This document shows positions 1-31,327 of a DNA stretch of 64,000 nucleotides, piece by piece (the first letter of the stretch is position 1; every line of letters begins with the position of its first letter). Origin of the DNA: Lytechinus pictus (Eukaryota). The notes below the pieces were generated by a model. The model saw only the letters and a program-made list of their open reading frames with translations, made no database searches and was not told the DNA's origin. The position numbers and the translations under genes are program-made. The stretch is taken from assembly GCF_037042905.1 (NCBI RefSeq), contig NC_087250.1:22136001-22200000 (forward strand). Reading direction: 5' to 3'.

Positions 1-2530
1 GTGGGTTATTAATGATAATAATGAGACATCACAAAAAAAGAAAGACAGAAATAAATATATAATTGATTATATAAAAAGACTGACCTTATGGATGCCAAAA
101 AAAAACCATTAGCACTAATTTTACAAAGAAGTTTTAACGCAGCAGTTATTTTTTTTTTGAATATTTTTCTTATTAAAATTATCACTTGTTTCAAAGAAAC
201 ATTGCCCTATTAAATATATGTTTGTTAAGATTGATGAACCGACATTTTGTAACTAGAATATAATTTAGAAACTAAATAAACGCGTCGTATTTCAGTCAAA
301 CGTAAGAGATGAAGTCTGTTTTTAAAATTCTGACATAAATTCTGGCGGACCAGAATTAAAGTTTTACATGGTCCAATATTTTACTTATACACTCTATCCC
401 TGGATTGCCACGAAGATCCATGATTTATAGATAACATCATTCTTGGTTCAAATATTACACATTACCATTCAATTCATAGCTTTGAAGTGAAAACAAATTG
501 GAGAAAATAAAGAATATTCTTACACCGCTCGAGGAAACCTAAAAATGTTGCTTCATAAATTCAGATTACCCATGGTATTTCAACATCAGCAAACAAACTC
601 TCTTTATGAATTAATGATCAATAATTCCACCCTCTCTCCACCTCTTCCTTCGCGCGATCTCTCTCTCTCTTTCACTCTTAGATAAGTTAAAAATTATTAT
701 TTTATTATTATCATCGTTAATATCATTATTATCATCATTTGTTATCATTATTATTGTTACTATTATTATTTATTTATATTATTATTCATTATTATCATTG
801 CTTGTTACTATTCATCATTATTATTATTATTATTTACTATCATCATTATTATAGTTGCTGTTGCTAATATTATTATTATTATATTCATTATTATTATTAT
901 AACTGATATATTATTGTTTTTGTTATTCAATATCAATACATTCAGTGAAAAAATGTATGTATTTCAATTTGCTTGATTTGAAACTTTATTTAGTATACTA
1001 GACATGCCTAGTAACTTGTTGGTTATTTTTCATAATGAGACAACACAAAAAATAAAGACAGAAATAAGTATATAATCGATTATATAATCACCAACAGATC
1101 TAGATGCTAAAATACCTAATCACCAATTTCACAGAGTAGTTTTAAAGCATCGTTTTCTTCTTTTAATATCGTTTTTAATAGAAATATTACTTGTTTGAAA
1201 GAATATTGCCCGATTGAATATATATTTCAGTAAAGATCAATGGACCTAATTTTTTTTAACTAGAATATAATATAGAAATTAAATAAACGTATCGCATTTC
1301 GATGTAAACAGTTCAGCGGCTTTAGGTTGTATTATAAAAGCACTTTTGGCAGACCAGAAACAAAAGTTCACATGTTCCAATGTTGTACACTTATGTCCCC
1401 TCCGATCCCCTGGAATGATACGAGAATCCATGAGTTAAAGATAACATTAATCCTTGGTTCAAACACTACAAAATACCATTCAATTCATAGCTATGATGTG
1501 AACACCAACTGGAGAAAATAAGAAACATTGGTACTCCGTTCCAGGAAACCTGAAAATTGCTTCAGATCTCACCCACATTGTTTCAAAATCGCCTAAATAA
1601 ACTCTGTTTACGAATAATGATTCATATTTCCACCCTCTCCCCCTCTCTTATACAAGTTAAAGATCATTATTATTATTATTTTATTATCATTATTATTAGT
1701 AGGAGTAGTATTATAATTGTTATGATTTTCATTATTATTATTATTATTATTATCTATTACATTATTATTTTTATTTATTCATGTCATTATTCATTATTAC
1801 TATTACTTGATACTATTTATTATTATCGTCATTTATTATTATTAAAATAATTATTTGTTATTATTAGTATTATTATTGCTATTTTTATTGCTGCTGTTGT
1901 TGTTGCTGTTGTTATTTCATAGCAATGCATTGCAGTGAAGCTATGTATTGCAATTCGCTTGAGTTGAAGCAGTATGTAGTGTATGAGACATGCCTTGTTT
2001 CTGTGATTTATTTATCATAACAATGAGACAACACACAAAATAAAGACAGAAATATGTATATAATCGATTATGTAATTTTCGACACCCTTATAATAATAAT
2101 ATTGTACTTATATAGCGCATAATATTCGTGATCTCTATGCGCTTAACAAATGAATTATTTATTACATAAGAAATCAAGCGAATGGATATTAAAATACCTA
2201 AGCACTAATTTCAGAAAGTAGTTTTAAAGTATCATCTTCTTTTCTTTAAATATCTTTTTTAAACAGAAAAATCACTTGTTTTAAAGAAATATTGCCATAT
2301 TAAATAAATTATTGTAAAGATTGATGGACCGACATTTTGTAACTAAAATATAGTTTAGAAACTAATACATATATAATATTTCGGTTTCGACCAGGTGATT
2401 ATAAATTTTGACATAAATTTTGGCGGACCAGTTTAAAGGTTTACATTGTATAATGTTGTACTCTAACATTCTATCTATCCCTGGAATGCCACGAAGATCC
2501 ATGATTTAGATATAACATCATTCTTGATTC

Positions 2531-2812
2531 CACTAGCGTACCTACGGGGGGGGGGGGGGGGCAGGGGGGCAGTCTGCCCCCCCTGATGAGTCCCAACCCA
2601 TGCAAAGTACGTATCCCTGCCCCCCTGACGAGCTTGAAAGACCTTTTTTGCTCCACCTGACGAGCTTGAAGACCTTTTTTTTTCTGGTACGAAATCCTAT
2701 ATTTGTGATTGAAGACCTTTTTTTTTTTTTTTTTTTTTTTTTTTGCTTGTCAAATTTTTTGGCGGACGGTTTTGCCCCCCCCCCCCTGTGGAAAATCCTA
2801 GGTACGCCACTG
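2531..2812. mobile_element. hAT-type MITE inserted in array unit 3
   Basis: Imperfect TIRs CACTAGCGTACCTA / TAGGTACGCCACTG; exact 8-bp TSD CTTGATTC at 2523-2530 and 2813-2820. Confidence 0.85.
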
Positions 2813-3777
2813 CTTGATTCAAATATTACACATTACCATTCAATTAATAGCTTTGATGTGAAAACAAATTGGAAAAAATGAATATTCCTACACCGCTCGG
2901 GAAACATAAAAATTTTGCTTTATAAATTCAGATTACCCATGGTATTTCAACATCACCAAACAAACTCTCTTTACGAATTAATGATCAATAATTGCACCAT
3001 CTCCCCACCTCTTCCTTCGCGCTCTCTCTCTCTCTCTCTCTCTCACTCTTAGATTAGTAAAAATTATTATTATCATCATTAAGGTCATTATTATTATTAT
3101 TTCTTATCATTATTATTGTTACTATTAGTATTTATTCATATTATTATTTATTATTACTATTACTGATTACTATTCATTAATATTAGTATTTACTATTATC
3201 ATTATTGTAGTTTTTGTTGCTGTTATTATTATTATTATTATCTTCATTATTATGATTACAACTGATATTATTATTGCTTTTGTTATTTAATATCAATACA
3301 TTCAGTGAAAAAAAATATATGTATTTCAATTTGCTTGAGTTGAAACTTGATGTAGTGTACTAGACATGCCTAGTGACTTGTGGGTTATTCATCATAATGA
3401 GACAACACACAAAATAAAAACAGAAATAAGTATATAATCGATTATGTAATTTTAGAAATTCTTATGGATAATGAAATACCTATGCACTAATTTCACAAGG
3501 TATTTTTAAAGCATCGTCTTCTTTGTATATATATTTTTTTTTTTCATAGAAATGTTACTTGTTACATAGAAATATCACCCAAATTAATATATTTTAGTAA
3601 AAACCATTAGACCAACAAATTTTAACTAGAATATAATTTGGAAAATAAAAAGTAAACTTGCATTTCGATGAAGATTGATAATTCTTGTGTTAAAAAATTG
3701 AAATAAAATTTTGGCGGACCAGAAACAAATGTTTATTTACATGGTCCAACGTTGTACTTTGACATTTAAATCTACTA

Positions 3778-6659
3778 CGGAGCCCCTAAGTTGACATGTC
3801 ATTATATTACTTTCGTAAGTCGTTCCCTCGACTTATTAACTCGTTACCACGACTTATAACTCGTTCCCTCGACTTACTAACTCGTTCCCTCGACTTACTA
3901 ACTCGTTCCCACGACTTACTAACTCGTTCCCTCGACTTGAATGCGCAGCAGACCGGCAGGAAGTTGGTTGGATATTCAGGTTCGATATTCAAACGCCTGT
4001 GAAGCTGGACCAATATTCGATATTCGATATTCAAAAATTAGGGGTTTTGAAAGCTAACTAGGGGGTTTAACAGGTGCAGCAAGTCTCGGGCAACCATAAA
4101 AACACTGGCTTGCCCAAATACGAGGACATTTAGGGGACAAACGTCAGTGAATAAAAGGGCATGACATTTTTTTTTTCGAGGGGCCCCCAGGGATTTCCCG
4201 ACGGCCTAGCCGGGGTAATGACGTATCCTAACTTGTAGAACTTTACTTGGGCAATCAGATAAACACTAGCATGACCCGGCGCATGCACATTTAGGGGGCA
4301 ACTCGGTAAAGCATCTCATGAGCAGATCTTATTCATCTATTATACTCAGTCCTAATTCCTCCACCACTAAAATAGTTCCGAAAGAGTGATACATGTATTT
4401 TTCTTTTATTCGCACAAAATATGTTCAGTGGTTGCCCATTCTTTGTTTCTAGAATCAGTCTAATCATTATACATACTCTTTTTTGTAATCAGCTTACAAC
4501 AAAAAATGAGAATGGGTTGGGTCGAATGAATATTTTCAGCCGTCTGTTGTATAGATCGTAATTTCTTGGAAAAAAAAGATGGGGGCGTATAACGATAGAA
4601 AACGTATTGTCAAAACATAAAATATGAGTATAAAGCTCCTATAATCTTCGAATGATTCTCAGGAGACTTTTTTTTTTGCATGTGTAGCCTTCAATTCAAT
4701 TAATCAACAACGAGTTATACCCCTACAAAATAAACGTTTCATAAACTAAAATGTCTCTTTTAGACGATATCGCGTGACTAATTTCAAAGCTATTGATTGA
4801 TTGATTGATTGATCGGCTAAATTTCCAAAGCGACTATAACATAATAAGAATTTAATTTCAAAATCATTTTTAAAGGCCAAAATTTTCTGGCTCGCTTCGC
4901 TCGCTGGCGACTTTTACAAATTTTTCCACATTTGCTATGTTGTGCTGCCTCAACATATTTCGTTTATTATCCGCAACTGCGTTGAACTTAATATAATATG
5001 CGGTGTATTTACCCGCAATTTGAAAAAAAAATGGCCATCTGCAATGTTTAAAAATATCACGAGGTTCCGGGGGCTCCGCCCCAGACCAGTGGTGGCACCA
5101 AAGGAGGAGGCCCCAGTGAGTTTCCCCCCTAAAAATTTTGGGGAAAAAATGTAAAGTGATTTCTCGAAAACTGTTTTTTGTTCTTTAAATTTTGAAAATG
5201 TTCTCATCCATTCACCGTAAACATTTAGCTCCCAACAATTTTGGTCACTAACATAAATCTTTGAGGTCATTATATAATATTCAAAATGTCGCTCGTGCTA
5301 CGCGCTCGCAGTTACTAATAATGGAGATAAGTAAATTATTTGTTCACATTGGGCTTAAAATCCAATGTTATTAGAGTTTTCATTATTCGTTTTAGCGAGA
5401 TACATATCCTACATATTCATAATTTTCATAAATGAAATATTTTCAGCGAATTAGATAGCCATTCAGTTCATGATTACAAAAAGTGCTTAGAACGTCCAGG
5501 TATCATCCCCGGATTTCAAAACTTTTCGCAATATAAATACCCTATATTATTATTATTATAGCACTGATCCCCCCAAAAAAGTTATACAACCGAGAACAAA
5601 AAAGAAATGATAAAAGGAAAGAAAGATGAAAGATATGATGTCATTTTTTGCATACCATTTTTTTTTCTCGCTCGCTCGAGACTTATTATTAAGCAAATTT
5701 TTGCTGCATGTGCCATGGTGTGCCCCCTCTTTTTGTTCTTATCACGCATTGAGCTTCGCCCTAATGCTCGGGGCACAATCATAAAACATCCTGTTCATAC
5801 AATGATATGACCCCTCCGTTCTCCCTTCTCTTTCTCTCCCGTCCCCCTCCTTTTCTTTCCTATCTCTCCCTTTCGCTTCTCTCTCTTCTATTTTGTATTC
5901 TCTCTTTCCTTGTTTTTTTTTACTCTACCCACTGGCGGCACCAAGAGATAGGGGAAAAGTCAGGATTTTCCTTTAATTTTGTTAATTTGAGCCCCCTAAA
6001 TGTTCATGCGCCGGGTCAAGCTAGTGTTTATCTCGTTGCCCGAGTCGAGTTCTACAAGTTAGGATACGTGGTTACCCCGGCTAGGCCGTCGGGATATCCC
6101 TGGGGGCCCCTCGGAAAAAAAAAAAAAAAAAAATGTCATGCCCTTTTATTCACTGACGTTTGTCCCCTAAATGTCCTCGTACTTGGGCAAGCCAGTGTTT
6201 TTATGGTTGTCCGAGACTTGCTGCACCTGTTTAACCCCCTAGTTAGCTTTCAAAACCCCTAATTTCTGAATATCGAATATCGAATATTGGTCCAGCTTCA
6301 CAGGCGTTTGAATATCAAACCTAAATATCCAACCAACTTCCTGCCGGTCTGCTGCGCATTCAAGTTGAGGAAACGAGTTAGTAAGTCGTGGGAACGAGTA
6401 ACAAACTTACAAGTCGAGGGAACGAGTTAGTAAGTCGTGGGAACGAGTTAGTAGGTCGTGGGAACGAGTTACAAACTTACAAGTCGAGGGAACGAGTTAG
6501 TAAATCGTGGGAACGAGTTATAAGTCGAGGGAACGAGTTATCAGTCGAGGGAACGAGTTATAAGTCGTGGTAACGAGTTAGTAAGTCGTGGTTACGAGTT
6601 AGTAAGTCGAGGGAACGACTTACGAAAAAAAATAATGACATGTCACCTTAGGGGCTCCG
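3778..6659. mobile_element. Non-autonomous long-TIR DNA transposon, copy 1
   Basis: Ends TA|CGGAGCCCCTAAG ... CTTAGGGGCTCCG|TA; ~500-650 bp inverted arms with tandem ~19-nt subrepeats AACTCGTTCCCTCGACTTA; no transposase ORF. Confidence 0.85.
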
Positions 6660-6809
6660 TAAGGCTCCGTACTTTGATGTGAAAACAAATGGAAGAAAAT
6701 GAGGAACATTGGTACTCCGTTTCAGGAAACCTAACAATTGCTTCAGATCACCCACATTGTTTCAACATCGCTTAAACAAACTCTGTTACGAATAATGATC
6801 CATATTTGC

Positions 6810-6850: not shown

Positions 6851-9800
6851 TCTCCCCCCTCTCTTAAAAGTAAAAAATCAATATTGTTATCATATTACTA
6901 TTATTATAAACATTATCATTAATATTATTATTATCATCATTATTATTAATACATACTTATTATCATTATTATCATCATTAATATCATTTTTATTATTATT
7001 TCTTATCATTATTATTGTTACTATTATTATATCTTTATATTATTATTCATTATTACTATTGCTTATTACTATTTATTATCATTATTTACTATTATCATCA
7101 TTATAGTTGTTGTGGCTGTTATTATTATCTTCATCATTATTATTACAACTGATATTATTGTTTTTTTTATAGCAATATTGCCCGAAATTGTATTTCAGTA
7201 AAGATCAATACTCCAAAATTATTTAAGTAGAATATAATTCAGAAACTAAATAAACCTATTGTATTTCGGTGTGTGTTGCTGTTGCTATTTTGGGTTTTAT
7301 TTTGAAAAAAAAAAAATTTGCGGGCCAGAAACAAAGTTTTACATGGTCCAATGTTGGACTCTTATATCCCCTTTCCTGGATTGTCAGTAGGATCCATGTA
7401 CTAAAGATAATAAAAATGAGACAGTACACAAAATAAAGACAGAAATAAGTATATAATCGATTATATACTCATCGACAAACCTTATGGATGCTAAAATACC
7501 TAAGCATTAATTTTACAAAGTAGTTTTAACGCATCATCTTTTTTTCTTTAAACATTTTTTTTAACGAAAATTTTATTTGCTTCAAAGAAATATAGCCATA
7601 TTAAATAGATTATTGTAAAAATTGATGGACCGACATTTTGTAACTAGGATATAACTTAGAAACTAAATAAGCGTATTGTATTTGGGTTTCAGCAAGTAAA
7701 TGACTTTTAAAGTCTGTAAACATAAAGTTTGGCGGACCAGAATTAAAGTTTTACATGATCCAATATTGTATTCTTATATCCTATCCCCTGGATTGCTACG
7801 AAGATCCATGATTTACCGATGACATCATCCTTGGTTCAACTGTTACACATTACCATTCAATTCATAGCTTTGATGTGAAAATAAATTGGAGAAAATAAAG
7901 AATATTCCTACACCGTTCGGGGAACCCTAAAAATGTTGCTTCATAAATTCAGATTACCCATGGTATTTCAACATCAGCAAACAAACTCTCTTTACGAATT
8001 AATGATCAATAATTGCACCCTCTCTCTCCCCCTCTTCCTTCGCGTGCTCTCTCTCTCTCTCTCACTCACACTTAGATTAGTTAAAAATTATTATTATCAT
8101 CAATATCATTATTATTATAATTTCTTATCATTATTATTGTTACTATTATTATCTATTCATATCATTTTTCATTATTACTATTACTGATTACTATTCATTA
8201 TTATTATTAATATTTACTATTATCATTATTGTAGTTGTTGCTGTTATTATTATTATTTTCATTACTATTATTACAACTGATATTAGTATTGTTTTGTTAC
8301 TTTATAGCAATACATTAAGTGAAAAAATATATGTATTTCAATTTGCTGGAGTAAAACTTTACGTAGTGTACTAGACATGCCTAGTGACCTGGGTTTTTTT
8401 ATCGTAATGAGACAGGTAAAAAAAATAAAGACAGAAATAAGTATATAATTTTAATTGATTGATTGGCCGATATGGCCTTTTATATGATAAAACAATATTT
8501 ACAAATATTATACAGAGGCAAAGGGATAAAAAAGCAAAATACAATTTTAGAGATAACAATTACAACAAATGAAAGCACAACATACATGTACCGGATGCAG
8601 GGGACCAGCGAAGGCCGAAGGCCTATCAAGGCTAGTCCCCGAACATAGCAATAAATAAAGTATAAACCAATACAAAAAAAGGGCAAAAAACAATCGATTA
8701 TATAAAAACCAACAGAACATATGGCAGCTGAATACCTAAACACCAATTTCACAAAGTGATTTCAAACAATCGTCTTCTTTGATTTTAATATCTTTTTTGA
8801 AACTTCTTTTTCAATAAAAATTTTACTTGTTCTAAAGAAATATCACCCGAATAAATACATTTCAGCAAAGATCAATTGACCCAAAAAAATTTAACTAGAA
8901 TATAATTTATAAACAAAATAAATATAATGTATTTCGGTACCAACAGAATTGAATTAGAAAACATTTATTAAACAATTTTGGCGGACCAGAAGTAATGTTT
9001 TACAAGGTCCAATATCTTACTCTTACATCTTATCCCCTGGATTACCTCGAAGATCTATGATGATGTAAAGATAACATCATTCTTGATTCAAATATTACAC
9101 ATTTAGCATTCAATTCATAGCTTTGATGTTAAAAGAAACTGGAGAAAATAGAGAATATTCCTACACCGTTCGGGGAAACCTAAATATTGCTTCATAAATT
9201 CAGGTTGTTCATGGTATTTCAACATCACCAAACAAACTCTCTTTACGAATTAATGATCAATAATTGCACCCTCTCTCCACCTCTTCCTTCGCGCGCGCTC
9301 TCTCTCCCCCCCCCCCCTCTCTCTCTCTGTCTCTCACTCTTAGGTTAGTTTAAAATTATTATCATCATTAATATCGTTATTATTATTCCTTATCATCATT
9401 ATTGTTTCTATTATTTATTTATTTATATTATTATTCATTATTTCTATTACTATTCATTATTATTAGTATTTATTATCATCATTGTAGTTTTTGTTGCTGT
9501 AAATATTATCATTATCTTCATAATCATTATTACAACTGATATTAGTATTGTTTTTGTTATTTCATAGCAATAAATTCAGTGAAAAAATATATATGCAGTT
9601 CAATTTGCTTGAGTTGAAACTTGATGTAGTGTACTAGACATGCCTAGTGACTTGTAGGTTATTTAACATGATGAGACAAGACACAAACTAAAGACAGAAA
9701 TAAGTATATAATCGATTAAGTATACACTAACAAACATTATGGATGCTAAAATACCTAAGCGCAAACTTCACAAAGTAATTTTAAAGCATCGTCTTCCTTT

Positions 9801-10462
9801 ACTTTAATATCTTTGAAATAAAATTAAATAAAATGTTATATGTTTCAAAGAAATATCGACCGAATAAACATATATTTTAGTAAAAATCAATACACCAAAA
9901 TATCTTAACTAGAATAGATTTTAAAAAGTAAATTAACTAATTGTATTTCGGTTTCTCATCGCTACTTTTGAATTTACTTTTTTTGTTGAAACAATTTTGG
10001 CGGACCAGAAATAATGTTTCATAAGGTCCAATTTTATATTCTTGAATTCTATCCCCTGGCTGGATTACCATGAAGATCCACTATTTAGAGATAACATCAA
10101 TTTTGTTCAAATACTACATATTAACAACCATAGCTTTGATGTGAAAACAAATTGTAGATAATAAAGAATATCCCTACACCGCTCGGGAAAACCTAAAAAT
10201 GTTGCTTCAGAAATTCAGATTACCAATGGTATTCCAACATCACCAAACCCTCTTTACGAATTAATGACCAATAATTGCAACGGGGAGCTCCCCCTCTTCC
10301 TTCGCATGCGCGCTCTCTCTCTCTCTCACTCTTAGATTAGTTCAAAACTGTTATTATCATTATTAATATCATTATTATTATTATTATTTATTTTCATTAT
10401 TATTGTTACTATTATTTATTTATCTATATTATTATTCATTATCACTATTACTTAATACTATA

Positions 10463-10629
10463 GGCGTTGTGGCGTGCGCCTGTAATCCAAGCTTTGTGCG
10501 GAAGTAACAAAGTGATGCAGAGCTTCGAGCCCTGGTCACGTCTTTCGGATGGTGACGTTAAAGGTCCGTCCCAGACGTAAATAATCATATCTAATTGACA
10601 CACGTCTGACAAAACTTAAATACACACAC
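10463..10629 (+). mobile_element. SINE with 7SL-like head, copy 1
   Basis: GGCGTTGTGGCGTGCGCCTGTAATCCAAGCT head, degenerate B box, (CA)n tail; near-identical to three other copies. Confidence 0.85.
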
Positions 10630-12073
10630 TATTCATTATTATTTACTATTATCATTATTACAGATCTTGCTGTTATTATTATCTTCATTACCATTATTAC
10701 AACTGATATTAGCATGGTTATTGCTATTTTGTAGCAATACATTCAGTGAGAAAATATATGTAATTCAATTTGCTTAAGTTGAAACGTCATGTAGTGTACT
10801 AGACATGCCTAGTGACTTGTAAGTTATTTACTATAATGAGACAACACAAAAAATAAAAACAGAAATAAGTATATAATCGATTATGTATACAATAACAAAC
10901 ATTATGGATGCTAAAACACCTAAGCACAAATTCCACAAAGTAATTTTAAAGCATCGTCTTCCTTTACCTTAATATCTTTTTAAAAAATTAATAAAAATGT
11001 CGTATGTTTTAAAGAAATATCGACCGAATAAACATTTATTTTAGAAAAATCAATTCACCAAAATATTTAACTAGAATAAATTTTAGAAATTAAATAAACT
11101 GATTGAATGTCGCGTTATCACTATGATACATTTTTACCTTTTTTAAAAACAATTTTAGCGGACCAGAAATAATGTTTCACATGGTCCAACATTATATTCT
11201 TACATCCTACCCCTGGATAGCCATGAAGATCCACTATGAAGAGATAACATCATTCTTGCTTCAAATACTACATATAACCATGCCTAGTGAATCATGAGAT
11301 ATTTATCATAAGGAGACCAAAAAAATAATAAAGACAGAAATTATATAATCGATCATATAAAACCTAACAGACCAAGAGGACACTAAAATACCTAAGCACC
11401 AATTTTACAAAGTAATTTTAAAGCATCGTCTTCCATTTTAAAATATTTTTTAAATATTTTTTAATAGCAATTATACTTGTTATGTTTTCAGAAATGTCAC
11501 CCAAATAAATATATTTTAGTAAAAATCTTTAGACCAAATTTTTTTAACTAGAATATATCTTAGAAAGTAAAATTATTATTGTATTTTTGTATTTAACGTT
11601 GTTATCAATTTATAATATATATCTTATTACAATTTTGGCGGATCAGAAACAATGTTTCACTTGGTCCATTACTTCACTCCTACAGCTTATCCCCTTGATT
11701 GCCACGAAGATCCAAGTTCTAGAGATAACATCATTCTTGGTTCAAATATTACACATTGCCATTTAACTCATTGCTCTGATGTAAAAGCAAATTGGAGAAA
11801 ATAAAGAGTATTCCGTCACCTTTCGGGGAAACTCAAAAATTGCTTCAGAAGTTCAGATAATCCATGGTATTTCAACAACACCAAACAAACTCTCTTTACG
11901 AATTAATGATCAATAATTCTCTTCCTTCGCGCTGTCTCTCTCACGCTTAGATTAGTTGAAATTATTACCAATATTATCATCATTAATATCATTATTATTT
12001 CTTATCATTATTATTGTTAGTATTATCATTTATTTATGATATTTATTATAACAATTACTTATTATTACAACTA

Positions 12074-12248
12074 GGCGTTGTGGCGTGCGCCTGTAATCCA
12101 AGCTATGTGGGGAAGTTACGAAGTGATGCAGAGGTTCGAGCCCTGGTCACGTCTTCCGTATGGTGACATTAAAGGTCGGTCCCAGACGTAAATAATCATA
12201 TCTGATTGATACACGTCTGACAAAACACATAATACACACACACACACA
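12074..12248 (+). mobile_element. SINE with 7SL-like head, copy 2
   Basis: Same sequence with B box GGTTCGAGCCC; same position in the unit as copy 1, so probably co-duplicated with the unit. Confidence 0.85.
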
Positions 12249-12924
12249 AACTATTCATTTTATTGTTTACTATTATCATTACTATAGATGTTACTGTTAT
12301 AATTATTATCTTCATTACTATTATTATAACTTGTATTAGTATTGTATTTATTATTTTCTAGCAATACATTCAGTGAGAAAATATATGTATTCCAATTTGC
12401 TTGAGTTGAAACTTCGTGTAGTGTACTAGACATGCCTAGTGACTTGTGGGTTATTTATCATAATGAGGACAACAACAAAATAAAGACAGAAATAAATATA
12501 TAATCGATTATATAAACAGCAACGGACGCTATGGATGCTAAATACCTAGGCACCAATTTCACAAAGTAATTTTAGAGCATCGTCTTCTTCTATTTTAATA
12601 TTTGTTTTAAATATTTTTTTTTCGATTGGAAAGGTTACTTGTTTCAAAGAAGAACTGCCCGAATAAATATATCTTAGTAAAGATCAATAGACAAAAAATT
12701 ATAACTAGAATATAATTTAAAAGCTTAAAAGTATAGTATTTTGGTACACTTATTGCTTAATTTATGCTCTAACTTATTTATAAACACAATTTTGGCGGAC
12801 CAGAGATGTTATACATGGTCCAATATTTATATTCTTACATCTCATCCCCTAGCTTTTAACTAGAATATAAATTTGAAATAAAATAAACCTATCGTATTTC
12901 GGTACATAGGCGCCTACATTAGTT

Positions 12925-13095
12925 GCTGGGCGTTGTGGCGTGCGCCTGTAATCCAAGCTATGTGGGGAAGTTACAAATTGATGCAGAGGTTCGAGCCCTG
13001 GTCACGTCTTTCGGATGGTGACGTTAAAGGTCGGTCCCAGACGTAAATAATCATTTCTGATTGATACACGTCTGACAAAAAACTCAAATACACAC
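12925..13095 (+). mobile_element. SINE with 7SL-like head, copy 3 (full 5' end), inside the variable window of unit 12
   Basis: GCTGGGCGTTGTGGCGTGCGCCTGTAATCC...GGTTCGAGCCC...TACACAC lies between GTATTTC and AGTTTTGGCGGACCAG. Confidence 0.85.
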
Positions 13096-17818: not shown

Positions 17819-20349
17819 GATGAAGTTTAAGCCGATTCCGATGAATTGACAAATATCTTGCCACTGATTCTCAATTTATAGAACCACTAAAGTTTCTGGA
17901 ATTCAAAGACTTTGATTTTCTCAACAAAATTTCATTTCAAAAAGGCAAAACGCCCCCCTCCCCCAATCTTTAATTGAATTGATTTTTAATCAATTTCATC
18001 AACATGGCAACTAACATCTGGACAAACCTCAGAAAATTGAAGATTTCTGAGATCTAAGGAACTTCCTCTTTCTGGATACCATGCAACATGGCTTAAATTC
18101 TTTTGTATTCATGTCTGGCATTATAGGGTCCAGCTTGAAACCATATGGGGGTAGTAAAATATTTGAACTATGAAATATATGGTGTCTTATAATTGAGAAA
18201 GACAGGGGTATGAATACTTTTGAACATTAGAAAATTCAGAAAAGTCATCTTCTCTATTATTATGCAAATGAGATGAAAATAAAATCAGCATGCTTTTGTA
18301 GATAATGTCTATTAGTATATAACTACTATGCAAGTTATCCAAGTTCTGCTTTCATTTTTATGAAAAGTGCAAAAAACACATATTTTCCTAGGGGTATGAA
18401 TACTTCTGACCACAACTGTAGCTTTGATGTGAAAACAAGTTGAAGAAAATAAAGAATATCCCTACACCGTTCGGGGAAACCTAAAAATGTTGCTTCAGAA
18501 ATTCAGATTACTAATGGTATTTCAACATCACCAAACAAACTCTATTTACGAATTAATTATCAATAATTGCACCCTCTCTCCCCCCTCTTCCTTCGCGCGC
18601 GCGCTCTCTCTCTCTCTCACTCTTAGATTAGTTAAAAAGTATTATTATTATCAATAATATCAATATTATTATCATTTCTTATCATTACTATTGTTACTTA
18701 TTTTTATTTATTTATATTATTTTTTATTATAACTATTACTGATTGCTATTCATAATTATAAGTTTTTACTATTATCATTATTGTAGTTTTAGTGGCTATT
18801 ATTATTATTATAATTATCTTCATTATTATTTTTACAACTGATTTTATTATTGTTTTTGTTATTGTATAGCAATACATTCAGTGAGGAAATATATGTATTT
18901 CATTATGCTTGAGTTTATAAAGAAAGAAATGAGTATATAATCGATCATAAAATCACCAATAGACCTTATGGATGCTAAAATACCTAAGCACCAATTTCAC
19001 TAAGTAGTTTTAAAGCATCGTCTTTTCTATTTAAATGTCTCTTTTTTACTATAATTTTTAATGGAACTTTTACTTGTTCCAAAGAAATACGGTCCGAATA
19101 AATATATTTTAGTAAAGATAAATACACCAAAAAAAAATAACTAGAATAGAATTTAGAAATTGAATAAACCAATTGTATTTCAGAACGTAGCGTTGGCTAT
19201 ATATTAGTGTTTGTTCTTGAAAAGAAAAATTGACGGACCAAGAATGTTTTACATGATCCAATATTTTACTCTTAAATTCTATCCTCTGGATTGCCACAAA
19301 GATTGATTATTTAGTGATAACATCATTCTTGATTCAAATACTACATATTACCATTCAATTTATTGCTTTCATGTGAAAACAAATTGGAGAAAATAAAGAA
19401 TATCCCTACACCGTTCGGGGAAACCTGAAAATGTTGCTCCATAAATTCAGATTACCCATGGTATTTCAACATCACCAAACGAACTTTCTTTACGAATTAA
19501 TGATCAATAATTGCACCCTCTCTCCCCCTCTTCCTTCGCGCGATCCCTCTCTCTCTCACTCTTAGATTAATTAAAAATTATTATTGTCATCATTTATATC
19601 ATTATTATTATTTCTTATCATTATTATTGTTACTATTAGTATTTATTCATATTATTATTTATTATTACTATTACTGATTACTATTCATTAATATTAGTAT
19701 TTACTATTATCATTATTGTAGTTTTTGTTGCTTTTATTACTATTATTATTATCTTCATTATTATGATTACAACTGATATTATCATTGCTTTTGTTATTTT
19801 ATAGCAATACATTCAGTGAAAAAAAAATATATGTATTTCAATTTGCTTGAGTTGAAACTTTATGTAGTGTACTAGACATGCCTAGTCACTTGTGGGTTAT
19901 TCATCATAATGAGACAACACACAAAATAAAGACAGAAATAAGTATATAATCGATTATGTAATTTTCAAAACTCTTATGGATAATAAAATACCTATGCACT
20001 AATTTCACCAAGTATTTTTAAAGCATCGTCTTTTTTCTATATATATTTTTTTTTTTAATAGAAATGTTACTTGTTCCATAGAAATATCACCCCAATTAAT
20101 ATATTTTAGTAAAAACCATTAGACCAACAAATTTTAACTAGAATATAATTTGAAAAAAAAATAATCATATAGTATTTCGATGGTAATAATGTTAGTTTTC
20201 TATATTTAAATTAGACTTATAATTTTGGCGGACCAGAAAGATTTACTTCCATGGTCCAATGTTGTACTCTTACATTCTATCATTGTGCGGAGCCCGTATG
20301 GTGACATGTCATTATTTCAAATTACAAGTCGTTCCCTCGACTTACTTGC

Positions 20350-21880
20350 CACATTTCGCAATAACGATTGGTGTATTTTTAGACTTATCTAAAGCATTCG
20401 ATTGTATAGACCATAATATTTTAATTGATAAGCTATCATCATACGGGTTTAGAGGGACAGTATTGAAGTGGTTAATCAGTTACTTAAGAAATCGAAAACA
20501 ATGTGTATGCATCAACAAAATTCATTCAGACTTTCAGGACATTAGAGTAGGGGTACCCCAGGGGTCTAACCTAGGCCCTCTTCTTTTTATATTGTACATC
20601 AATGACCTGCAACATGTAAGTAATATTTTAACTACTACCTTATTTGCAGACGATACAAGTTTATTTTTATCTGGTAAGGATCCCATTCAATTAAATAATA
20701 TTTTAAATTCTGAAATGGAAAAAGTTCACATGTGGTTCCAAGCCAACAGACTACAAATTAACACTAAGAAGACATCTTTTATGATTTTTAAGCCTAAAAA
20801 TAAGAAAATTGAAGAAAACTCAATAAAATTATATATAAATGATTTTGAAATTCAGAAAGTGCAATATACGAAATTCCTAGGTGTCACAATTGACGATAGC
20901 ATGAGTTGGAAACAACATGTAAATAATATTTCTATGAAGATTTCTCAAACCATTGGTGTACTTAATAGAATCAAAGGTGACTTACCATTGCATATTCGTG
21001 TTCAATTATACAATACAATGATACTCACGCATCTCAGCTATTGCAATATCGTATGGGGGGACTGTGCAAATTATTTAAAGCTACAATTATTTCGCTTACA
21101 AAAACGGGCAATAAGAATAATAACAAATTCCCCATATTTAGCTCACTCTCATCAATTATTCCGTAAATTAAAGATTCTAAAAATTTATGATATACATACC
21201 CTTCACACTGCAATTTTTATGTTTTCATACTACAAGAATCAGTTGCCTGACACATTTAACAGTTATTTTAAAACAAATCGCAGTGTAAACAAATATAATA
21301 CGAGAAATTCTGATAATTTATACATTCCTTTTTACCGCTTTTCTTTCTCAAGAACCGTCATAAGTTATAGTGGACCACTCATATGGAACAGTTTGCCCCC
21401 TGAAATAAAAGAAAGTCCTTCGCTAAATTCATTTAAAGTAAGATTTAAGTCTTACCTTCTAAATATGTATACTTCACCATGTTCTCAGTGAATAAGCTTG
21501 CTTGCTTTTATGTGTATGTTTTTTAAACATATTTTTTTGTAATGTAGTTGTTATTTTTTTTCTTCAAAATTTTCATTAGTTTGTTGATTTCGTTTATTTT
21601 GAAATGTGTGTTTCTTGCAATCTAATCAATTGATTGCAGGATGGTCTTTTTTCGGGAATGAATGTTAATCAGGGAGTAGCCTAGATAGGTCTATTTGGCT
21701 TTTGCTATCCCCCCACATCGCATTCATTACCCTATGTATTTTGTTATTTTTGTTAATTTGTCATTTTACTATATTCATTACTCCTTTACTCCTTTACTAT
21801 GGAATCATTTTGATTGATCTCGATATATTGTATCTTGTATGTTTTTTACAGATGTGAAATAAATGAATTTGAATTTGAAT
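20350..21880 (+). mobile_element. 5'-truncated CR1/L2-group LINE (open RT C-terminal half, 3' UTR, tail)
   Basis: IGVFLDLSKAFDCIDH, GVPQGSNLGPLLF, FADDT, KFLGV; open to the stop at 21491; AATAAA plus (TGAATT)n tail at ~21858-21880. Confidence 0.93.
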
Positions 21881-22795: not shown

Positions 22796-25700
22796 CGGCC
22801 TCTCGAGCTCTGGGAGGAACCAAATGTGGATTTAGAAAGTCGTCCTAAATCGGATATATCGCTGTTACCATAGTAGCAACCAGAATTTTGCACACGAAAC
22901 GCAAATTGAATGTTTCCGTTCAAGATGCGAAACGAAAAAAAAATCTCATGTCACACAATTTGCATTGCAGGACAGAGTTTTAAGACCATGACGACGGGCC
23001 CAAAAGTCTCTTCCAAATTCAACTAACGTCGTAAATAAGCGTTCGCGTTCTTCCAACGAAAGGTCTGGACTAACTCGTTACCACGACTTATAGCTCGTTC
23101 CCTCGACTTACTAACTCGTTCCCACGACTTACTAACTCGTTCCCTTGACTTGAATGCGCAGCAGCCCGGCAGGAAGTTGGTTGGATATTCAGGTTCGATA
23201 TTCAAACGCCTGTGAAGCTGGACCAATATTCGATATTCGATATTAAAAAAATAGGGGTTTTGAAAGCTAACTAGGGGGTTTAACAGGTGCAGCAAGTATC
23301 GGGCAACCATAAAAACACTGGCTTGCCCAAATACGAGGACATTTAGGGGACAAACGTCAGTGAATAAAAGGGCATGACATTTTTATTTTGTGATTTTTTT
23401 TCGAGGGGTCCCCAGGGATATCCCGACGGCCTAGCCGGGGTAATAACGTATCCTAACTTGTAGAACTTTACTTGGGCAATCAGATAAACACTCGCATGAC
23501 CCGGCGCATGCACATTTAGGGGGCAACTCGGTAAAGCATATCATGAGCAGATCTTATTCATCTATTATACTCAGTCCTAATTCCTCCACCACTAAAATAG
23601 TTCCGAAAGAGTGATACATGTATTTTTCTTTCATTCGCACAAAATATGTTCAGTGGTTGCCCATTCTTTGTTTCTAGAATCAGTCTAATCATTATACATA
23701 CTCTTTTTTGTAATCAGCTTACAAAAGAAAATTAGAATGGGTTGGGTTGAATGAATATCTTCAGCCGTCTGTTGTATAGATCGTAATTTCTTGGAAAAAA
23801 GATGGGGGCGTATAACGATAGAAAACGTATTGTCAAAACATACAATTTGAGTATAAAGCTCCTATAATCTTCGAATGATTCTTAGGAGACATTTTCTTTT
23901 GCATGTGTAGCCTTCAATTCAATTAATCAACAAGGAGTTATACCCCTACAAAATAAACGTTTCATGAACTAAAATGTCTCTTTTAGACGATATCGCGTGA
24001 CTAATTTCAAAGCTATTGATTGATTGATTGATTGATCGGCTAAATTTCCAAAGCGACTATAACATAATAAGAATTTAATTTCAAAATCATTTTTAAAGGC
24101 CAAAATTTTCTGGCTCGCTTCGCTCGCTGGCGACTTTTACAAATTTTTCCACATTTGCTATGTTGTGCTGCCTCAACATATTTCGTTTATTATCCGCAAC
24201 TGCGTTGAACTTAATATAATATGTGGTGTATTCACCCGCAATTTGATTTTAAAAAATGGCCATCTGCAATGTTTAAAAACATCACGTGGTTCCGGGGGCT
24301 CCGCCCCAGACCAGTGGCGGCACCAAAGGAGGAGGCCCCAGTGAGTTCCCCCCCCTGAAATTTTGGGGAAAAAAAATGTAAAGTAATTTCTCGAAAAATA
24401 TTTTTTGTTCTTTAAATTTTGAAAATTTCCTCATCCATTCACCGTTAGCATTAAGCTCCCAACAATTTTGGTCACTAACAAATCTTTGAGGTCATTATAT
24501 AATATTCAAAATGTCGCTCGCGCTACGTGCTCGCAGTTACTAATAATGGAGATAAGTAAATTATTTGTTCACATGGGGCTTAATAATCCAATGTTATTAG
24601 AGTTTTCATTATTCGTTTTAGCGAGATACATATCCTGCGTATTCATAATTTTCATTAATGAAATATTTTCAGCGAATTAGATAGCAATTCAGTTCATGAT
24701 TACAAAAAGTGCTTAGAACGTCCAGGTATCATCCCCGGATATCAAAACTTTTCGGCTCGCGCTTCGCGCTCGCATTATTCATTTGGTGAGATATCATCTT
24801 CATGGACCAATTAATGCAAACAGCTAGTCCTTGACAGGTCCCTTTTCAAGTCAGTATAGGGACTATACATTTGAAATAAAATTAGCTCGCGCTTCTCACT
24901 CTGTTTTAAAAAAATTGTGTGTCACCCCCCCCCCCCCGGCCCCAAAATGTTATTTTGCCTCCTCATAGGTTAAAAACTATGGTGCCGTCTTTGCCACGGA
25001 CCCGATCCGCATAGCACTGATCCCCCCAAAAAAATTATACAACCGAGAACAAATTAAAAAGAAATGATAAAAGGAAAGAAAGATGAAAGATATGATGTCA
25101 TTTTTTGCATACCATTTTTTTTCTCGCTCGCTCGAGACTTATTATTAAGCAAATTTTTGCTGCATGCGCCATGGTGTGCCCCTCTTTTTGTTCTTATCAC
25201 GCATTGAGCTTCGCCCTAATGCTCGGGGCACAATCATAAAACATCCTGTTCATACAATGATATGACCCCTCCGTACTCCCTTCTCTTTCTCTCCCGTTCC
25301 CACTCCTTTTCTTTCCTATCTCTCCATTTCGCTTCTCTCTCTTCTATTTTGTATTCTCTCTTTCCTTTTTTTGTTTTACTATACCCACTGGCGGCACCAA
25401 GGGATGGGGGAAAAGTCAGGACCGTGGTTCCCCATGCTTGAAATAGCCCTTTATTCCTTTAATTTTGTTAATTTGAGCCCCCTAAATGTTCATGCGCCGG
25501 GTCAAGCTAGTGTTTATCTGGTTGCCCGAGTCGAGTTCTACAAGTTAGGATACGTGGTTACCCCGGCTAGGCCGTCGGGATATCCCTGGGGGCCCCTCGA
25601 AAAAAAATCAAAAAGTAAAAATGTCATGTCCTTTTATTCACTGACGTTTGTCCCCTAAATGTCCTCGTACTTGGGCAAGCCAGTGTTTTTATGGTTGTCC

Positions 25701-27160
25701 GAGACTTGCAGCTGCACCTGTTTATCCCCCTAGTTAGCTTTCAAAACCCCTAATTTTTTAATATCGAATATCGAATGTTGGTCCAGCTTCACAGGCGTTT
25801 GAATATCGAACCTGAATATCCAACCAACTTCCTGCTGGTCTGCTGCGCATTCAAGTCGAGGGAACGAGTTAGTAAGTCGTGGGAACGAGTTACAAACTTA
25901 CAAGTCGAGGGAACGAGTTAGTAAATCGTGGGAACGAGTTATAAGTCGTGGGAACGAGTTAGTAAGTCGAGGGAACGAGTTAATAAGTCGAGGGAACGAG
26001 TTAATAAGTCGAGGGAACGAGTTAATAAGTCGAGGGAACGAGTTATAAGTCGAGGGAACGAGTTATAAGTCGTGGTAATGAGTTAGTAAGTCGAGGGAAC
26101 GACTTACGAAAACAAAAATGACATGTCACCTTAAAGGCTCTGTACTTTGATGTGAAAATGAGGAACATTGGTACTCCGTTCCAGGAAATGTGAAAATTGC
26201 TTTAGATCACCCACATTGTTTCAACATCGCTTAAACAAACTCTGTTACGAATAATGATCCATATTTGCCCCCCCCCCTCTCTCTCTCTCTCTCACTCTCT
26301 CTTCCTCTCCCCCTGTCTTAAAAGTAAAAAATCAATATTGTTATCATATTACTATTATTATAAACATTATTATAATATTATTATTATTATTATCATTATT
26401 ATTAATATCATACTTATTATCATTATTATCATCATTAATATCATTCTTATTATTATTTCTTATCATTATTCGTGTTACTATTATTATAAATTTATATTAT
26501 TATTCATTATTACTATTACTTATTACTATTCATTATCATTAGTATTTACTATTATCATTATTATAGTTGTTGTTGCTGTTATTATTATTATCTTCATTAT
26601 TATGATTATAACTGATATTATTATTGTTTTTGTTATTTTATAGCAATATATCCAGTGAAAAAAATATATGTATTTCAATTTGCTTGAGTTGAAACTTTAT
26701 GTAGTGTACAATGCATGCCTAGTGACCTGGGGTTATTTACCACAATGAGACAGGTAACAAAATAAAGACAGAAGTACATAATCGATTATGTAATTTTCGA
26801 CCCTCTTATGGATAATGATATACCGAGGCACTAATTTCACAAAGTAGTTTTGAAGCATCGTTTCCTTTTACTTAATATATTTTATCATGAAAATATGACT
26901 TGTTTCAAAGAAATATTGCCCGATTAAATATATTTTAGTAAAGATCAATAGACAAAAATTTTTAACTAGAATATAATTTAGAAACTAAATAAAACTATCG
27001 CATTTCGATAAACAAAGAGTTGCGGAATTTGGTTATATGTTGAAAATAATTTTGGCGGACCAGAAATAAAGTTGTACATGGTCTAATATTGTACACTTAC
27101 ATTCTAACCCCTAAATTGGCACGAAGATCCATGGTTTAGAGATAACATCATTCTTGATTC

Positions 27161-28254: not shown

Positions 28255-28420
28255 GTGTATTTGAGTTTTGTCAGACGTGTATCAATCAGATATGATTATT
28301 TACGTCTGGGACCGACCTTTAACGTCACCATCCGAAAGACGTGACCAGGGCTCGAACCTCTGCATCAATTTGTAACTTCCCCGCATAGCTTGGATTACAG
28401 GCGCACGCCACAACGCCCAG
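28255..28420 (-). mobile_element. SINE with 7SL-like head, copy 4
   Basis: Reverse complement of 12926-13095. Confidence 0.85.
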
Positions 28421-28944
28421 TTCCATGAACTAAAGATGATAATAATGAGACAGTACACAAAATAAATAAAGTTAGTAAGTCGAGGGAACAAGTTATAAGT
28501 CGAGGGAACGAATTATAAGTCGTGGTAACGAGTTAGTAAGTCGAGGGAACGACTTACAAAAAAATAAAGACAGAAATAACTATATAATCGATCATCGACA
28601 AACCTTATGAATGCTTAAATATCTAAGCACTAATTTTACAAAGTAGTTGTAACGCATCATCTTCTTTTCTTTAAATATTATTTTAAACAAAAATATCACT
28701 TGTTTCAAAGAAATGTAGCCCTATCAAATGTATTATTGTAAAGATTGATGGACCGACATTTTGTAACTAGAATATAATTTAGAAACTAATATTTATATTG
28801 TATATCGGTTTCTAGGGCGGCGATATTTTTTTAATATTTTGACGTAAATTTTGGCGGACCAGTTTCAAAGGTTTACATGGTCCAATGATGTTGTACTCTT
28901 ACATCCCCTCCGATCCCCTGGAATGACACGAGGACCTATGAGCT

Positions 28945-29756: not shown

Positions 29757-30008
29757 AATAATAATAATAGTTGGATGTATAAAGCGCTTTTTGCCTGGGG
29801 ATACAAAGCGCTGCTATTATTAACCCGGCTTTAGCTCGAGCTACCATCACCGGCGCTCAGTGCATGCAAGGAATTACTCCTGCCGGGTGCCCATTCACCT
29901 CACATGGGTCGAGTGCAGCATTTGTGGATAAATTTCTTGCTGAAGCCATGGCTGGGATTCGAACCCACGACCCGCGAGAGTCAGAACCACTAGACCACGA
30001 CGCACCCA
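29757..30008 (-). mobile_element. tRNA-derived SINE
   Basis: Minus strand: A box TGGTCTAGTGG, B box GGTTCGAATCC, (TTA)n tail; related decayed 3' part at ~62030-62230. Confidence 0.8.
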
Positions 30009-30475: not shown

Positions 30476-30623
30476 GGGGTCCGTTGCAGAAAGAGTTGCG
30501 TTTAAACGCAAGTAAAAAAAATCAATCGCAAGTCCCAAATTCGCGCTGTTGATTGGTTGAAAATCAAGTTGCGCATGATTTTTAGAGTTGCGATTGATTG
30601 CAACTCTTTCTGCAACGGGCCCC
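30476..30623. mobile_element. ~150-bp MITE (PIF/Harbinger-like), copy 1
   Basis: TIR GGGGTCCGTTGCAGAAAGAGTTGC / GCAACTCTTTCTGCAACGGGCCCC. Confidence 0.8.
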
Positions 30624-30706
30624 AGAATGAGTACGAATACCTTCCTTACCATGAATCAACCATCCTTGGTTCAAATACCACATGTTACCATTCTCTTCAT
30701 AGCTCA

Positions 30707-30853
30707 GGGGCCCGTTTCAGAAAAAGTTGCAATCAATCGTAACTCTAAAAATCAATCGCAACTTGATTTTCAACCAACAACAGTGCGCATTTGGGAGTTG
30801 CGATTGATTTTTTTGACTTGCGTTTAAACGCAATTCTTTCTGCAACGGGCCCC
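30707..30853. mobile_element. ~150-bp MITE (PIF/Harbinger-like), copy 2, inverted relative to copy 1
   Basis: Same TIRs; TCA/TGA flanks; interrupts the unit motif CATAGCT-TGATGTGAAAAC. Confidence 0.8.
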
Positions 30854-31327
30854 TGATGTGAAAACAAAGTGAAGGAAAGGAAGAATATTACTATACCGTT
30901 CAAGGAAACCTGAAAATAGTTCAGATCATATCACCCACGGTGTTTCAACATCACCAAAACAAATTATGTTTACGAATAATGATCCATATTTGCACCCTTT
31001 ACCCCCCCCCCTTTCTCTTTCTCTATCTCTCTCTCTCTCCCCCTCTCTCTCTCTCTTCCACCTCAGTATTATTATCATTATTGTTGCTGTTGTTATTATT
31101 ATTGTTGTTGTTGTAATCATCACTATTATATTACTATTATTATTATTATTATCACTATTACCATTGTTATCATTTGTTAAGTGTGTTGCTTTCCATCATA
31201 TGGTATGCTTTGTGGTATTTCAATACGGTTGTCAGATTTTATACTAAATTCCCTCTTATTCAGGTTTAAGAATGTATATAATGTAAAAATATCTTCCTCG
31301 CTTGTACTTGAAATTCTGTTATTACAG

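Follow-up and report, generated by a model that had tools for sequence, protein, structure and literature searches.

The question raised by this locus is why a tandem array should keep most of its repeat unit and yet scramble one short window within it. The locus lies in a 64-kb stretch of the Lytechinus pictus genome (contig NC_087250.1, positions 22,136,001–22,200,000, contig C6 below; the whole stretch is referred to as the window), and genome searches covered the 812-Mb assembly of 368 contigs. A Pfam bindin match with an E value of 1.5e-67 places the genome among the echinoids. An earlier note, made from the sequence alone, had described an array of units of about 1 kb, each with a different payload of about 40 nt, and had proposed a repertoire of guide-RNA minigenes. 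The answer favoured here, tentatively, is that the array and at least four dispersed paralogues may form an orphan family of Sm-class small nuclear RNA (snRNA)-type genes with U7-like architecture and diversified 5' arms. That the family is of the Sm class and of snRNA type is the firmer part of this answer and is probable. That the arms act as diversified antisense elements is the weaker part, possible but open to real doubt.

An array of units with one variable window

The array occupies window positions 1–31174 and runs in one direction (+ strand), with 17 units of about 1 kb that are interrupted by transposons. Unit 1 (window 1–1344) re-aligned by blastn along the + strand of the window as far as 31174 with 70–84% identity. 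The first array nucleotides lie about 165 nt upstream of window position 1, and apart from these no array-like sequence was found in the 40 kb upstream of the window. All 17 variable windows were recovered at the positions that the earlier note had given, each behind a (G/C)(T/C)ATTTC-like border, and their length is indeed similar, at 35–49 nt up to the T run of the Sm site in the 16 units compared. The right border, AATTTTGGCGGACCAG, was counted 15 times at up to three mismatches, always on the + strand and between positions 338 and 28862. The expected number was 0.46, and none of 100 shuffle controls reached 15.

Column identity was assessed from a MAFFT alignment of 16 cassettes (-330 to +130), using 286 windows of 20 columns with an occupancy of at least 0.85. 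The five lowest windows all fall in the payload, with identities of 0.23–0.33 as compared to a median of 0.65. The lowest window outside the payload (0.37) is at the right end of the alignment, where transposons interrupt some units. Averaged over 120 pairs, global identity was 0.72 upstream and 0.71 downstream of the payload and 0.54 within it, where shuffling gave 0.50 +/- 0.05. The right-border count, the alignment identity and the pairwise identity as compared to shuffles confirm conserved units with a single variable window, and the per-column comparison across units shows the payload to be more divergent than the rest of the unit.

This pattern bears on the possibility that the array is a non-transcribed satellite, in which the conserved blocks would be protein-binding or structural DNA motifs and any Sm-like site or hairpin would be coincidental. 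A satellite of this kind is very improbable. Even decay would be expected from it, whereas the decay seen here is uneven, with the identity minimum confined to the payload, as the earlier note had argued. The anatomy of the unit, its conservation pattern and the census of the family given below are observations made in this genome.

The right border is an Sm site followed by a hairpin

The right border AATTTTGGCGGACCAG consists of a canonical Sm site, AAUUUUGG, and then a hairpin, GGACCA/UGGUCC. The form AATTTTGG is exact in 10 of the 17 array units, and the other seven carry one or two changes; the site is degenerate in the units whose windows start at 7268 and 19182. The classical Sm consensus is a purine, A, three to six U, G and a purine. 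AATTTTGG fits this consensus as RAU4GR, and strictly read it is without the U before the G of the nonamer PuAUUUNUGPu. The hairpin begins 1 nt past the Sm site and has an inner stem of up to five pairs within the outer GGACCA/UGGUCC stem. Fourteen of the 18 copies folded, from the array and from dispersed loci, reached -7.3 kcal/mol or lower. Of the cells in the proposed 11-pair structure, 87.7% pair, and sliding the partner column lowers this to 22–55%. Six changes in the outer stem keep the pairing, all of them to G-U, and eight further cells are unpaired. An Sm site with an adjacent 3' stem-loop is described in one report as the module recognised by the SMN/Sm assembly machinery (bioRxiv 10.1101/857334).

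The cassettes are listed here by window coordinates and strand. "Arm" denotes the variable window, which precedes the Sm site.

250–374, +: u340; TAACTAGAAT box at 250, arm 294–337, Sm-like site AATTCTGG at 338–345 with a C within the U run, hairpin stable
1257–1378, +: u1344, probably decayed; arm 1301–1341, Sm site ACTTTTGG, hairpin lost (-0.5 kcal/mol)
2340–2451, +: u2418, decayed; box TAACTAAAAT, arm 2383–2415, Sm site AATTTTGG, 3' side of the stem broken
3623–3747, +: u3709, intact; arm 3667–3706, Sm site 3707–3714, hairpin loop 4 nt longer
7224–7349, +: u7316, decayed; box TAAGTAGAAT, arm 7268–7314, degenerate Sm site AATTTGCG, hairpin intact
7641–7761, +: u7727; arm 7685–7724, Sm site AAGTTTGG, stem weakened by a C.A mismatch
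8892–9010, +: u8976, intact; arm 8936–8973, Sm site AATTTTGG at 8974–8981, hairpin of -9.5 kcal/mol
9906–10029, +: u9995, intact; arm 9950–9992, Sm site 9993–10000
11068–11187, +: u11153; arm 11112–11150 (kin to the u14162 arm), Sm site AATTTTAG, two-tier hairpin of -10.8 kcal/mol
11545–11667, +: u11633, intact; arm 11589–11630, Sm site 11631–11638, U.G wobble in the stem
12702–12821, +: u12790, intact; arm 12743–12787, Sm site 12788–12795, truncated downstream, with the next cassette at 12857
12857–13149, +: u12901/13115, disrupted; arm from 12901, Sm site AGTTTTGG at 13113–13120, hairpin intact by eye
14075–14196, +: u14162, intact; arm 14119–14159, Sm site 14160–14167, G.U wobble in the stem
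19138–19259, +: u19228, decayed; arm 19182–19225, Sm site lost (AAAATTGA), stem weakened
20135–20257, +: u20223, intact; arm 20179–20220, Sm site 20221–20228, inner stem kept with a different sequence
26963–27084, +: u27050, intact; arm 27007–27047, Sm site 27048–27055, G.U wobble in the stem
28764–28883, +: u28849, intact; arm 28807–28846, Sm site 28847–28854

The arm of u12901 is cut from its right border (13113) by a short interspersed nuclear element (SINE) of about 170 nt at 12926–13093. Downstream of u2418 there is an insertion of about 290 nt (2530–2812) that contains long homopolymer runs of G, C and T as well as a short internal repeat, CTGACGAGCTTGAAGACCTTTTTT. Two units are short, at window 11153–11633 and 12790–12857, with hairpin-to-next-promoter-box spacings of 480 nt and 67 nt; these spacings indicate internal deletions through unequal exchange between units.

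An extended structured RNA reaching from the Sm site to a conserved box downstream was also considered. It was rejected on its weak consensus fold (-7.9 kcal/mol, with a covariation term of +0.5). The single metagenome match to the Sm site and stem fell in T-rich, unrelated DNA and was judged to be chance.

Promoter-like boxes and the genome's own snRNA genes

A consensus of the unit was built from 16 array copies and two dispersed copies. Its best conserved block is TTAACTAGAATATAAT, and the proximal box, TAACTAGAAT, has a column identity of 0.85–0.89. Behind this block comes a less conserved spacer with a TAAATAAA-like stretch, and then TATTTC|G. The 44 nt upstream of the border differ in every unit, their 3' half being about 65% conserved. 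Among the U1, U2, U5 and U6 genes of this genome, 12 of the 19 examined carry TAAC(T/C)(G/A) at -58 to -65; the TAAC core is at -58 to -60 in U1, U2 and U5 and at -65 in U6. Variants that match the TAACTAG of the cassette occur in a U6 gene (CTAACTAGATT) and a U1 gene (GTAACTAGTG). Going by the title of a promoter study, the proximal sequence elements of sea urchins reportedly share minimal sequence similarity, and the TAAC core is to be taken with caution.

The proximal box and the Sm site are 83–89 nt apart in 18 of 20 members, the two outliers being decayed copies. Further upstream, 17 of 20 members have a distal box, TAATCGAT(T/C)A, 245–288 nt before the T run of the Sm site; in an 18th, u2418, the distance is 355 nt. 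TAATCGATTA also stands at -295 in one genuine U6 gene, and near -300 a TGACGT(C/A) element is present in four of the six dispersed U1 genes. Downstream, at 25–160 nt, there is another conserved box, which is a candidate 3'-end signal that weakly matches the CAAAGAAAGA 3' box. One example of each of the two boxes is given:

8693–8708, +: distal box, AACAATCGATTATATA
9135–9165, +: downstream box, GATGT.AAAA.AAA.TGGAGAAAATA.AGAA, about 160 nt after the Sm site

At the left border of the arm the pyrimidine/purine step TTTC|G is conserved, and it is the best candidate for a start site. If the spacing of U1, U2 and U5 (58–60 nt) is valid here, the start would instead be about 15 nt inside the arm, and that part of the arm would be untranscribed. 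Under either candidate start, a variable single-stranded arm of about 25–45 nt precedes the Sm site.

The genome's own U1, U2 and U5 genes stand in tandem arrays with units of 1405 bp, 1037 bp and about 1362 bp. The arrays (C2:31.96–32.01 Mb, C8:33.237–33.285 Mb and C13:21.634–21.679 Mb) are long, with near-identical units and some U5 inverted pairs, and all carry the CAAAGAAAGA 3' box 9–16 nt past the RNA end. Since U1, U2 and U5 are found in arrays with units of 1.0–1.4 kb, an Sm-class array with units of about 1 kb is the normal arrangement of snRNA genes in this organism. Conservation within such an array can be compared directly. In 25 U5 copies aligned in the same way, the gene is near invariant, the 3' box is conserved and the outer flanks are poor; the spacer from promoter to start is among the best conserved parts of the flank (0.73–0.81). 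The cassette array is the reverse of this, having good flanks and its worst conservation in the promoter-proximal and 5' gene parts.

The variable arm

The earlier note held that the arm differs in every unit. This stands for the core, which is scrambled, and needs qualification elsewhere, because there are subfamilies of arms and the first three and last eight or so positions are constrained. The subfamilies are u9995/u11153/u14162 and u340/u2418/u7727/u28849; within them the arms differ by substitutions and indels and not by wholesale replacement, and the arms of u11153 and u14162 are 79% alike. Positions 1–3 read G-G/A-T in most units, with G in 14 of 16 and A in two of 16 at the first position, and four units start with GGTTTC. 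At the other end, nearly all units are A-rich over the eight or so nucleotides that lead up to the Sm site. Given this kinship and the fixed ends, the truly scrambled core is about 15–30 nt. The arm is unstructured, with fold z-scores of -0.8 to +1.7 that are no better than those of shuffles.

Recombination within the array appears to leave the arm aside. None of the 109 within-array blast segments with at least 90% identity over at least 60 nt reaches the first 30 nt of any payload, and four end 19–38 nt short of one; by rough arithmetic, randomly placed segments would give about 20 overlaps. In the case of u3709 and u20223, the two units are about 96% alike over 550 nt upstream and about half matched from behind the promoter box to the Sm site. 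On the downstream flank their likeness is no more than about 80%. The unequal flanks make this pair an instance of a recombination or conversion boundary at the cassette, and not proof of hypermutation.

The presence of GT dinucleotides in the arm raises the possibility that these are spliced-leader (SL) RNA genes. A polymorphic leader exon and its donor would then lie in the variable stretch, or an upstream exon would end in a G|GT donor and the variable stretch would be an unconstrained 5' portion of the SL intron. The layout (a 5' part, GT, 20–60 nt, an Sm site of the form AT4-6G, a stem-loop) fits the definition used by SLIDR, tandem arrays of about 1 kb are typical of such genes, and multi-leader families are described in the same report (PMC7986045). 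In 14 of 16 units a GT falls among the first 6 nt, and all 16 have one 20–60 nt before the Sm site. The conserved G|GT exactly at the left border of the arm is the reason for keeping this explanation, at a low probability. Four of the 16 units, however, have GT only at positions 1–3, and by our own arithmetic GT occurs by chance in about 90% of A/T-rich 45-mers. No leader is common to any two units, as both the arms and the 44 nt upstream differ, and the latter look like two promoter boxes and a spacer and not like an exon. A 5' stem-loop is not predicted, the 5' fold energy being no better than that of shuffles, and no Rfam SL family was matched at E values up to 10.

Dispersed paralogues

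The pattern AACYAGAATAN{60,90}ATTTTGGCGG matched 13 times in the 812 Mb and not at all in the control. Nine matches are units of the array and four are single copies elsewhere:

C6:20.158 Mb: dispersed single copy, from the pattern search
C6:20.892 Mb: dispersed single copy, from the pattern search
C6:20.901 Mb: dispersed single copy, from the pattern search
C9:26.515 Mb: dispersed single copy, from the pattern search

The search of the genome for more copies thus yielded four dispersed members with the same layout, all of them single. The cassette family is no dispersed repeat. In each instance the dispersed copy has its own arm, an exact AATTTTGG and the hairpin, with some differences in loop and inner-stem sequence. 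The proximal box reads TAACCAGAAT in one copy, AAACTAGAAT in two and TAACTAGAAT in one. The distal TAATCGAT box is present in all four, and in L014 and L070 TGACGTCA is found about 345 nt upstream of the Sm site, which parallels the TGACGT(C/A) element of the dispersed U1 genes. The downstream box is kept in three of the four and was not seen in L069.

L014 and L070 lie on different contigs, one on C6 and the other on C9. They are 72–84% alike over about 330 nt upstream and about 50% alike in arm and loop. Their Sm sites do not differ, two A-to-G changes in the stem preserve it by leaving G-U pairs, and the downstream box is conserved. This is important to note because L014 and L070 are not neighbours, so that tandem homogenisation is not the whole cause of the contrast between flank and arm.

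These copies also bear on the satellite. A short core is all that the promoter match amounts to, a 3' box is absent and the covariation of the hairpin is non-significant, and each of these points fits a satellite. Coincidence would, however, have to cover a perfect Sm site, a stem preserved through G-U pairs, a promoter-like core whose distance is fixed and a distal box that a U6 gene also has, and all four of these features are retained in the four dispersed single copies on two contigs.

What the arm may do

At least 13 copies, including the four dispersed ones, retain the promoter-like core at its fixed distance, the distal box, the Sm site and the stem, which argues for an expressed Sm-class RNA. 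In an intact unit the order is distal box TAATCGATTA, proximal box TAACTAGAAT, the TTTC|G step, an arm of 35–49 nt, the Sm site AAUUUUGG and the two-tier hairpin. RNA polymerase II would make from it an RNA of about 70–90 nt. The Sm site and the adjacent hairpin would recruit the normal Sm ring, as on spliceosomal snRNAs. The arm is the only part unused in assembly, single-stranded and constant in length, which suggests a pairing adaptor like that of U7: the single-stranded 5' arm would supply specificity by base pairing, with one specificity for each paralogue. Three causes could contribute to the fast turnover of the arm. Length alone may be constrained; snRNA-type genes may be prone to transcription-associated mutation; and the recombination that homogenises the flanks may stop short of the arm. 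Transcription, the polymerase, the RNA ends, Sm binding and antisense action are what we infer from the layout of the units.

Several observations weigh against this account. Six of the 17 array units are decayed or disrupted, and transposons lie within the array. A weight matrix from 11 real promoter sites scored 9 bits or more in two of 16 cassettes and gave 18 such matches in the window on both strands; the matrix being so unselective, the promoter match is counted as suggestive only. The distance from the proximal box to the TTTC|G step is 44 nt, as compared to a box-to-start distance of 58–60 nt in U1, U2 and U5 and 65 nt in U6. No copy of the CAAAGAAAGA 3' box was found at up to one mismatch 30–260 nt past the Sm site; at two mismatches it appears in six of 21 copies, at +161 to +165. 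The covariation of the hairpin is within its shuffle control, as 87 to 251 of 500 shuffles match the observed values, and the structure is conserved without proof from covariation. Rfam searches at E values up to 10 gave 11 weak matches in window 1–31200, none of them on the cassettes and two of them to the SRP-like heads of a SINE. A/T-rich sequence of low complexity makes up the 3' half of the arm. The first 22 nt of the arm contain 23% G, 12.5% C, 36% T and 28% A (upstream, G is 9%), and mutational bias fits this excess of G over C and of T over A as well as selection does. When three of the 16 arms were searched genome-wide at up to three mismatches on both strands, all three matched only themselves.

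The 16 arms were also compared with 187 kb of local sequence, where no exact match was longer than shuffled arms give. Both arm-target searches are blind to pairings of 10–18 nt.

Much of this would be expected if the genes are of the same snRNA type and the arm is a functionless, unconstrained leader, partly untranscribed spacer, which is scrambled by transcription-associated mutation and indels. Selection would then act on the promoter boxes, the spacing, the Sm site and the stem only, the RNA would have a minor role or none, and the array would be slowly decaying. This alternative is rather unlikely, though it is the strongest of those considered. The spacing of U1, U2 and U5 would put the start within the payload, and the last 20 nt before the starts of dispersed U1 and U2 genes are likewise variable and richer in G and C. 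The coding-strand G+T excess of the first 22 nt, the gradual divergence within subfamilies (as in u11153/u14162), the decayed or disrupted units and the lack of arm targets in the searches made all agree with it. There are precedents as well. Exceptionally elevated mutation through transcription is described for tRNA genes in one report (PMC6130373), and another extends fast mutation to the snRNA genes of RNA polymerase II (bioRxiv 10.64898/2026.10.12.758683); the orphan LU of Drosophila, treated below, provides another (PMC4053861). On the other side, it is not obvious why an RNA conserved in nothing but its Sm site and hairpin should persist in 13 or more copies with an exact Sm site, of which four are dispersed. 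In this genome's U5 array the spacer is not scrambled, and the first 22 nt of the arm are more complex and G-rich than A/T-rich drift predicts, unless mutational bias is at work.

The orphan Sm-class family with diversified arms is therefore retained as the preferred, still tentative, reading. The minigene proposal of the earlier note survives in its shared promoter-like block, its Sm and hairpin scaffold and its unstructured arm, and falls short in that the arm searches described above found no target. The scaffold can now be specified as an Sm site and hairpin behind a putative snRNA-type promoter, and the hypervariable arm would be unusual for Sm-class genes.

A bolder version of the preferred reading is unlikely. 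In it, about 15–20 paralogues sharing one promoter and one Sm/hairpin scaffold would form a germline repertoire of programmable Sm-class antisense small nuclear ribonucleoproteins. Their arms would be renewed by duplication and fast turnover, shielded from homogenisation, and each would aim the Sm core at a different nuclear RNA. Engineered U7 constructs with a consensus Sm site serve to deliver antisense arms, and the cassettes, if their arms do guide, would be a natural precedent for such laboratory antisense snRNAs.

Sea urchins are a classical system for work on snRNAs and U7. The known Sm-class RNAs form a small, old and highly conserved set, made up of the spliceosomal snRNAs, U7, spliced leaders and a few orphans. 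A multi-copy family with fixed assembly signals and a free pairing arm would, if true, be a new use of the Sm scaffold. If the arms are unconstrained, the locus would still be of use as a clear example of small, heavily transcribed genes that mutate far faster than their flanks, with a few nucleotides and a length under selection.

Mobile elements and neighbouring features

A foldback transposon is present at 3776–6660 and 23069–26133 (also 28470–28564), its ends being inverted blocks of a 21-nt tandem repeat, TAACTCGTTCCCTCGACTTAC. The two copies are about 95–97% alike internally. They lie at the same place in u3709 and u20223, about 35 nt past the hairpin, which may reflect an inherited insertion or a target preference for the cassettes.

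The SINE (about 165 nt) has four copies that are 93–98% alike, at 10461–10625, 12072–12226 and 12926–13093 (+) and at 28255–28420 (-). Its head resembles the 5' domain of the 7SL RNA of the signal recognition particle (weak Rfam matches, E 0.0004–0.0016), and it has a tRNA-like B box, GGTTCGAGCCC.

Open reading frames (ORFs) of the long interspersed nuclear element type are found at 15201–17145 and 20223–21491 (+) and at 48630–53469 (-). The last includes a zinc-knuckle, ORF1-like frame, an endonuclease-like N-terminus, a reverse transcriptase of 844 aa and an RNase H-like tail. The nearest Atlas clusters of these ORFs are RVT_1/RNase_H/Exo_endo_phos_2 families.

A long inverted repeat spans 30481–30848, with arms at 30481–30623 and 30707–30848 that are 92% complementary. 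It is probably a small foldback element or a miniature inverted-repeat transposable element at the decayed end of the array. Its weak match to a plant microRNA family is surely spurious.

Comparison with known systems

Many small units with a common flanking element and a unit-specific short sequence are known from the 21U-RNA minigenes of C. elegans and from CRISPR arrays. The cassettes differ in that their scaffold is an Sm site and a hairpin, that the units are about 1 kb apart and that none of the three arms searched has a further copy in the genome. Kinship between units extends to their arms, so that arms diverge in place and are not acquired. Captured spacers, as in CRISPR or piRNA clusters, were rejected on these last two grounds.

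Searches of the 64 kb with Rfam at gathering scores gave no match, and the window has no tRNA genes. A prior description of the family was not found by Rfam, literal-string or word searches, which left the older sea-urchin snRNA literature largely uncovered. The literature matches to literal sequences were irrelevant; one concerns a 35-nt satellite of C. elegans.

Spliced-leader genes share with the cassettes a small Sm-class RNA, an AAUUUUG-type Sm site beside a stem-loop, tandem arrays of about 1 kb and, in some taxa, many leaders. In the SLIDR report, an SL is defined by a GT donor, an AT4-6G Sm site 20–60 nt later and flanking stem-loops, and the many-leader families are those of Trichinella, with 15 SLs, and of Hydra, where SL-A to SL-G have Sm sites such as AAUUUUGA (PMC7986045). 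The cassettes differ in having no conserved exon, consistent donor or 5' stem-loop. Transcript ends from embryos of another sea urchin show little if any trans-splicing (PMC3460201).

LU of Drosophila is described as a dispensable and fast-diverging Sm-class snRNA that is thought to derive from a U5 duplicate (PMC4053861). The likeness lies in a lineage-restricted orphan with snRNA promoter elements, an Sm site and stem-loops, formed by duplication and rapid divergence. The differences are that there are about 21 copies of the cassette and that its single-stranded region is the variable part.

U7 is close in architecture, being a short snRNA-type gene of RNA polymerase II in which a single-stranded 5' pairing arm is followed by an Sm-type site and a terminal 3' hairpin. 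According to one report, U7 genes are clustered in sea urchins, and the features that define U7 are a deviant Sm site (RUUUNUCYNG), a hairpin on the 3' side and, within the pairing arm, a UCUUU box (PMC5054213). The U7 Sm motif was found in none of 16 units and the histone-pairing box (TCTTT) in none of 16 arms, and the Rfam U7 model RF00066 had no match in window 1–31200 at E values up to 10. U7 identity is ruled out by the absence of both sequence hallmarks from all 16 units and by the unmatched Rfam model. A genome-wide search for a U7 family also found none; it scored 65 of 190,597 candidates and carries little weight. As the Sm site here is of the spliceosomal type, the normal Sm ring would be expected and not the Lsm10/11 ring. 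A further difference from U7 is that the arm of the cassettes varies from copy to copy.

The tandem U1, U2 and U5 genes of the same genome share with the cassettes a unit of 1.0–1.4 kb with one small gene each, the TAAC(T/C)(A/G) core, and an Sm site with a 3' stem. They differ in being homogenised, with identical scores along the array, an invariant RNA and the CAAAGAAAGA 3' box, whereas the units of the cassette array are 70–84% alike and least conserved in the 5' part of the gene. The family probably belongs to a known kind, that of tandem Sm-class snRNA genes, and stands outside any described family tested. The earlier note had recognised no described family with this layout. The layout itself is one that Sm-class snRNA, U7 and SL genes share, and what sets the cassettes apart among them is the unusual, hypervariable arm.

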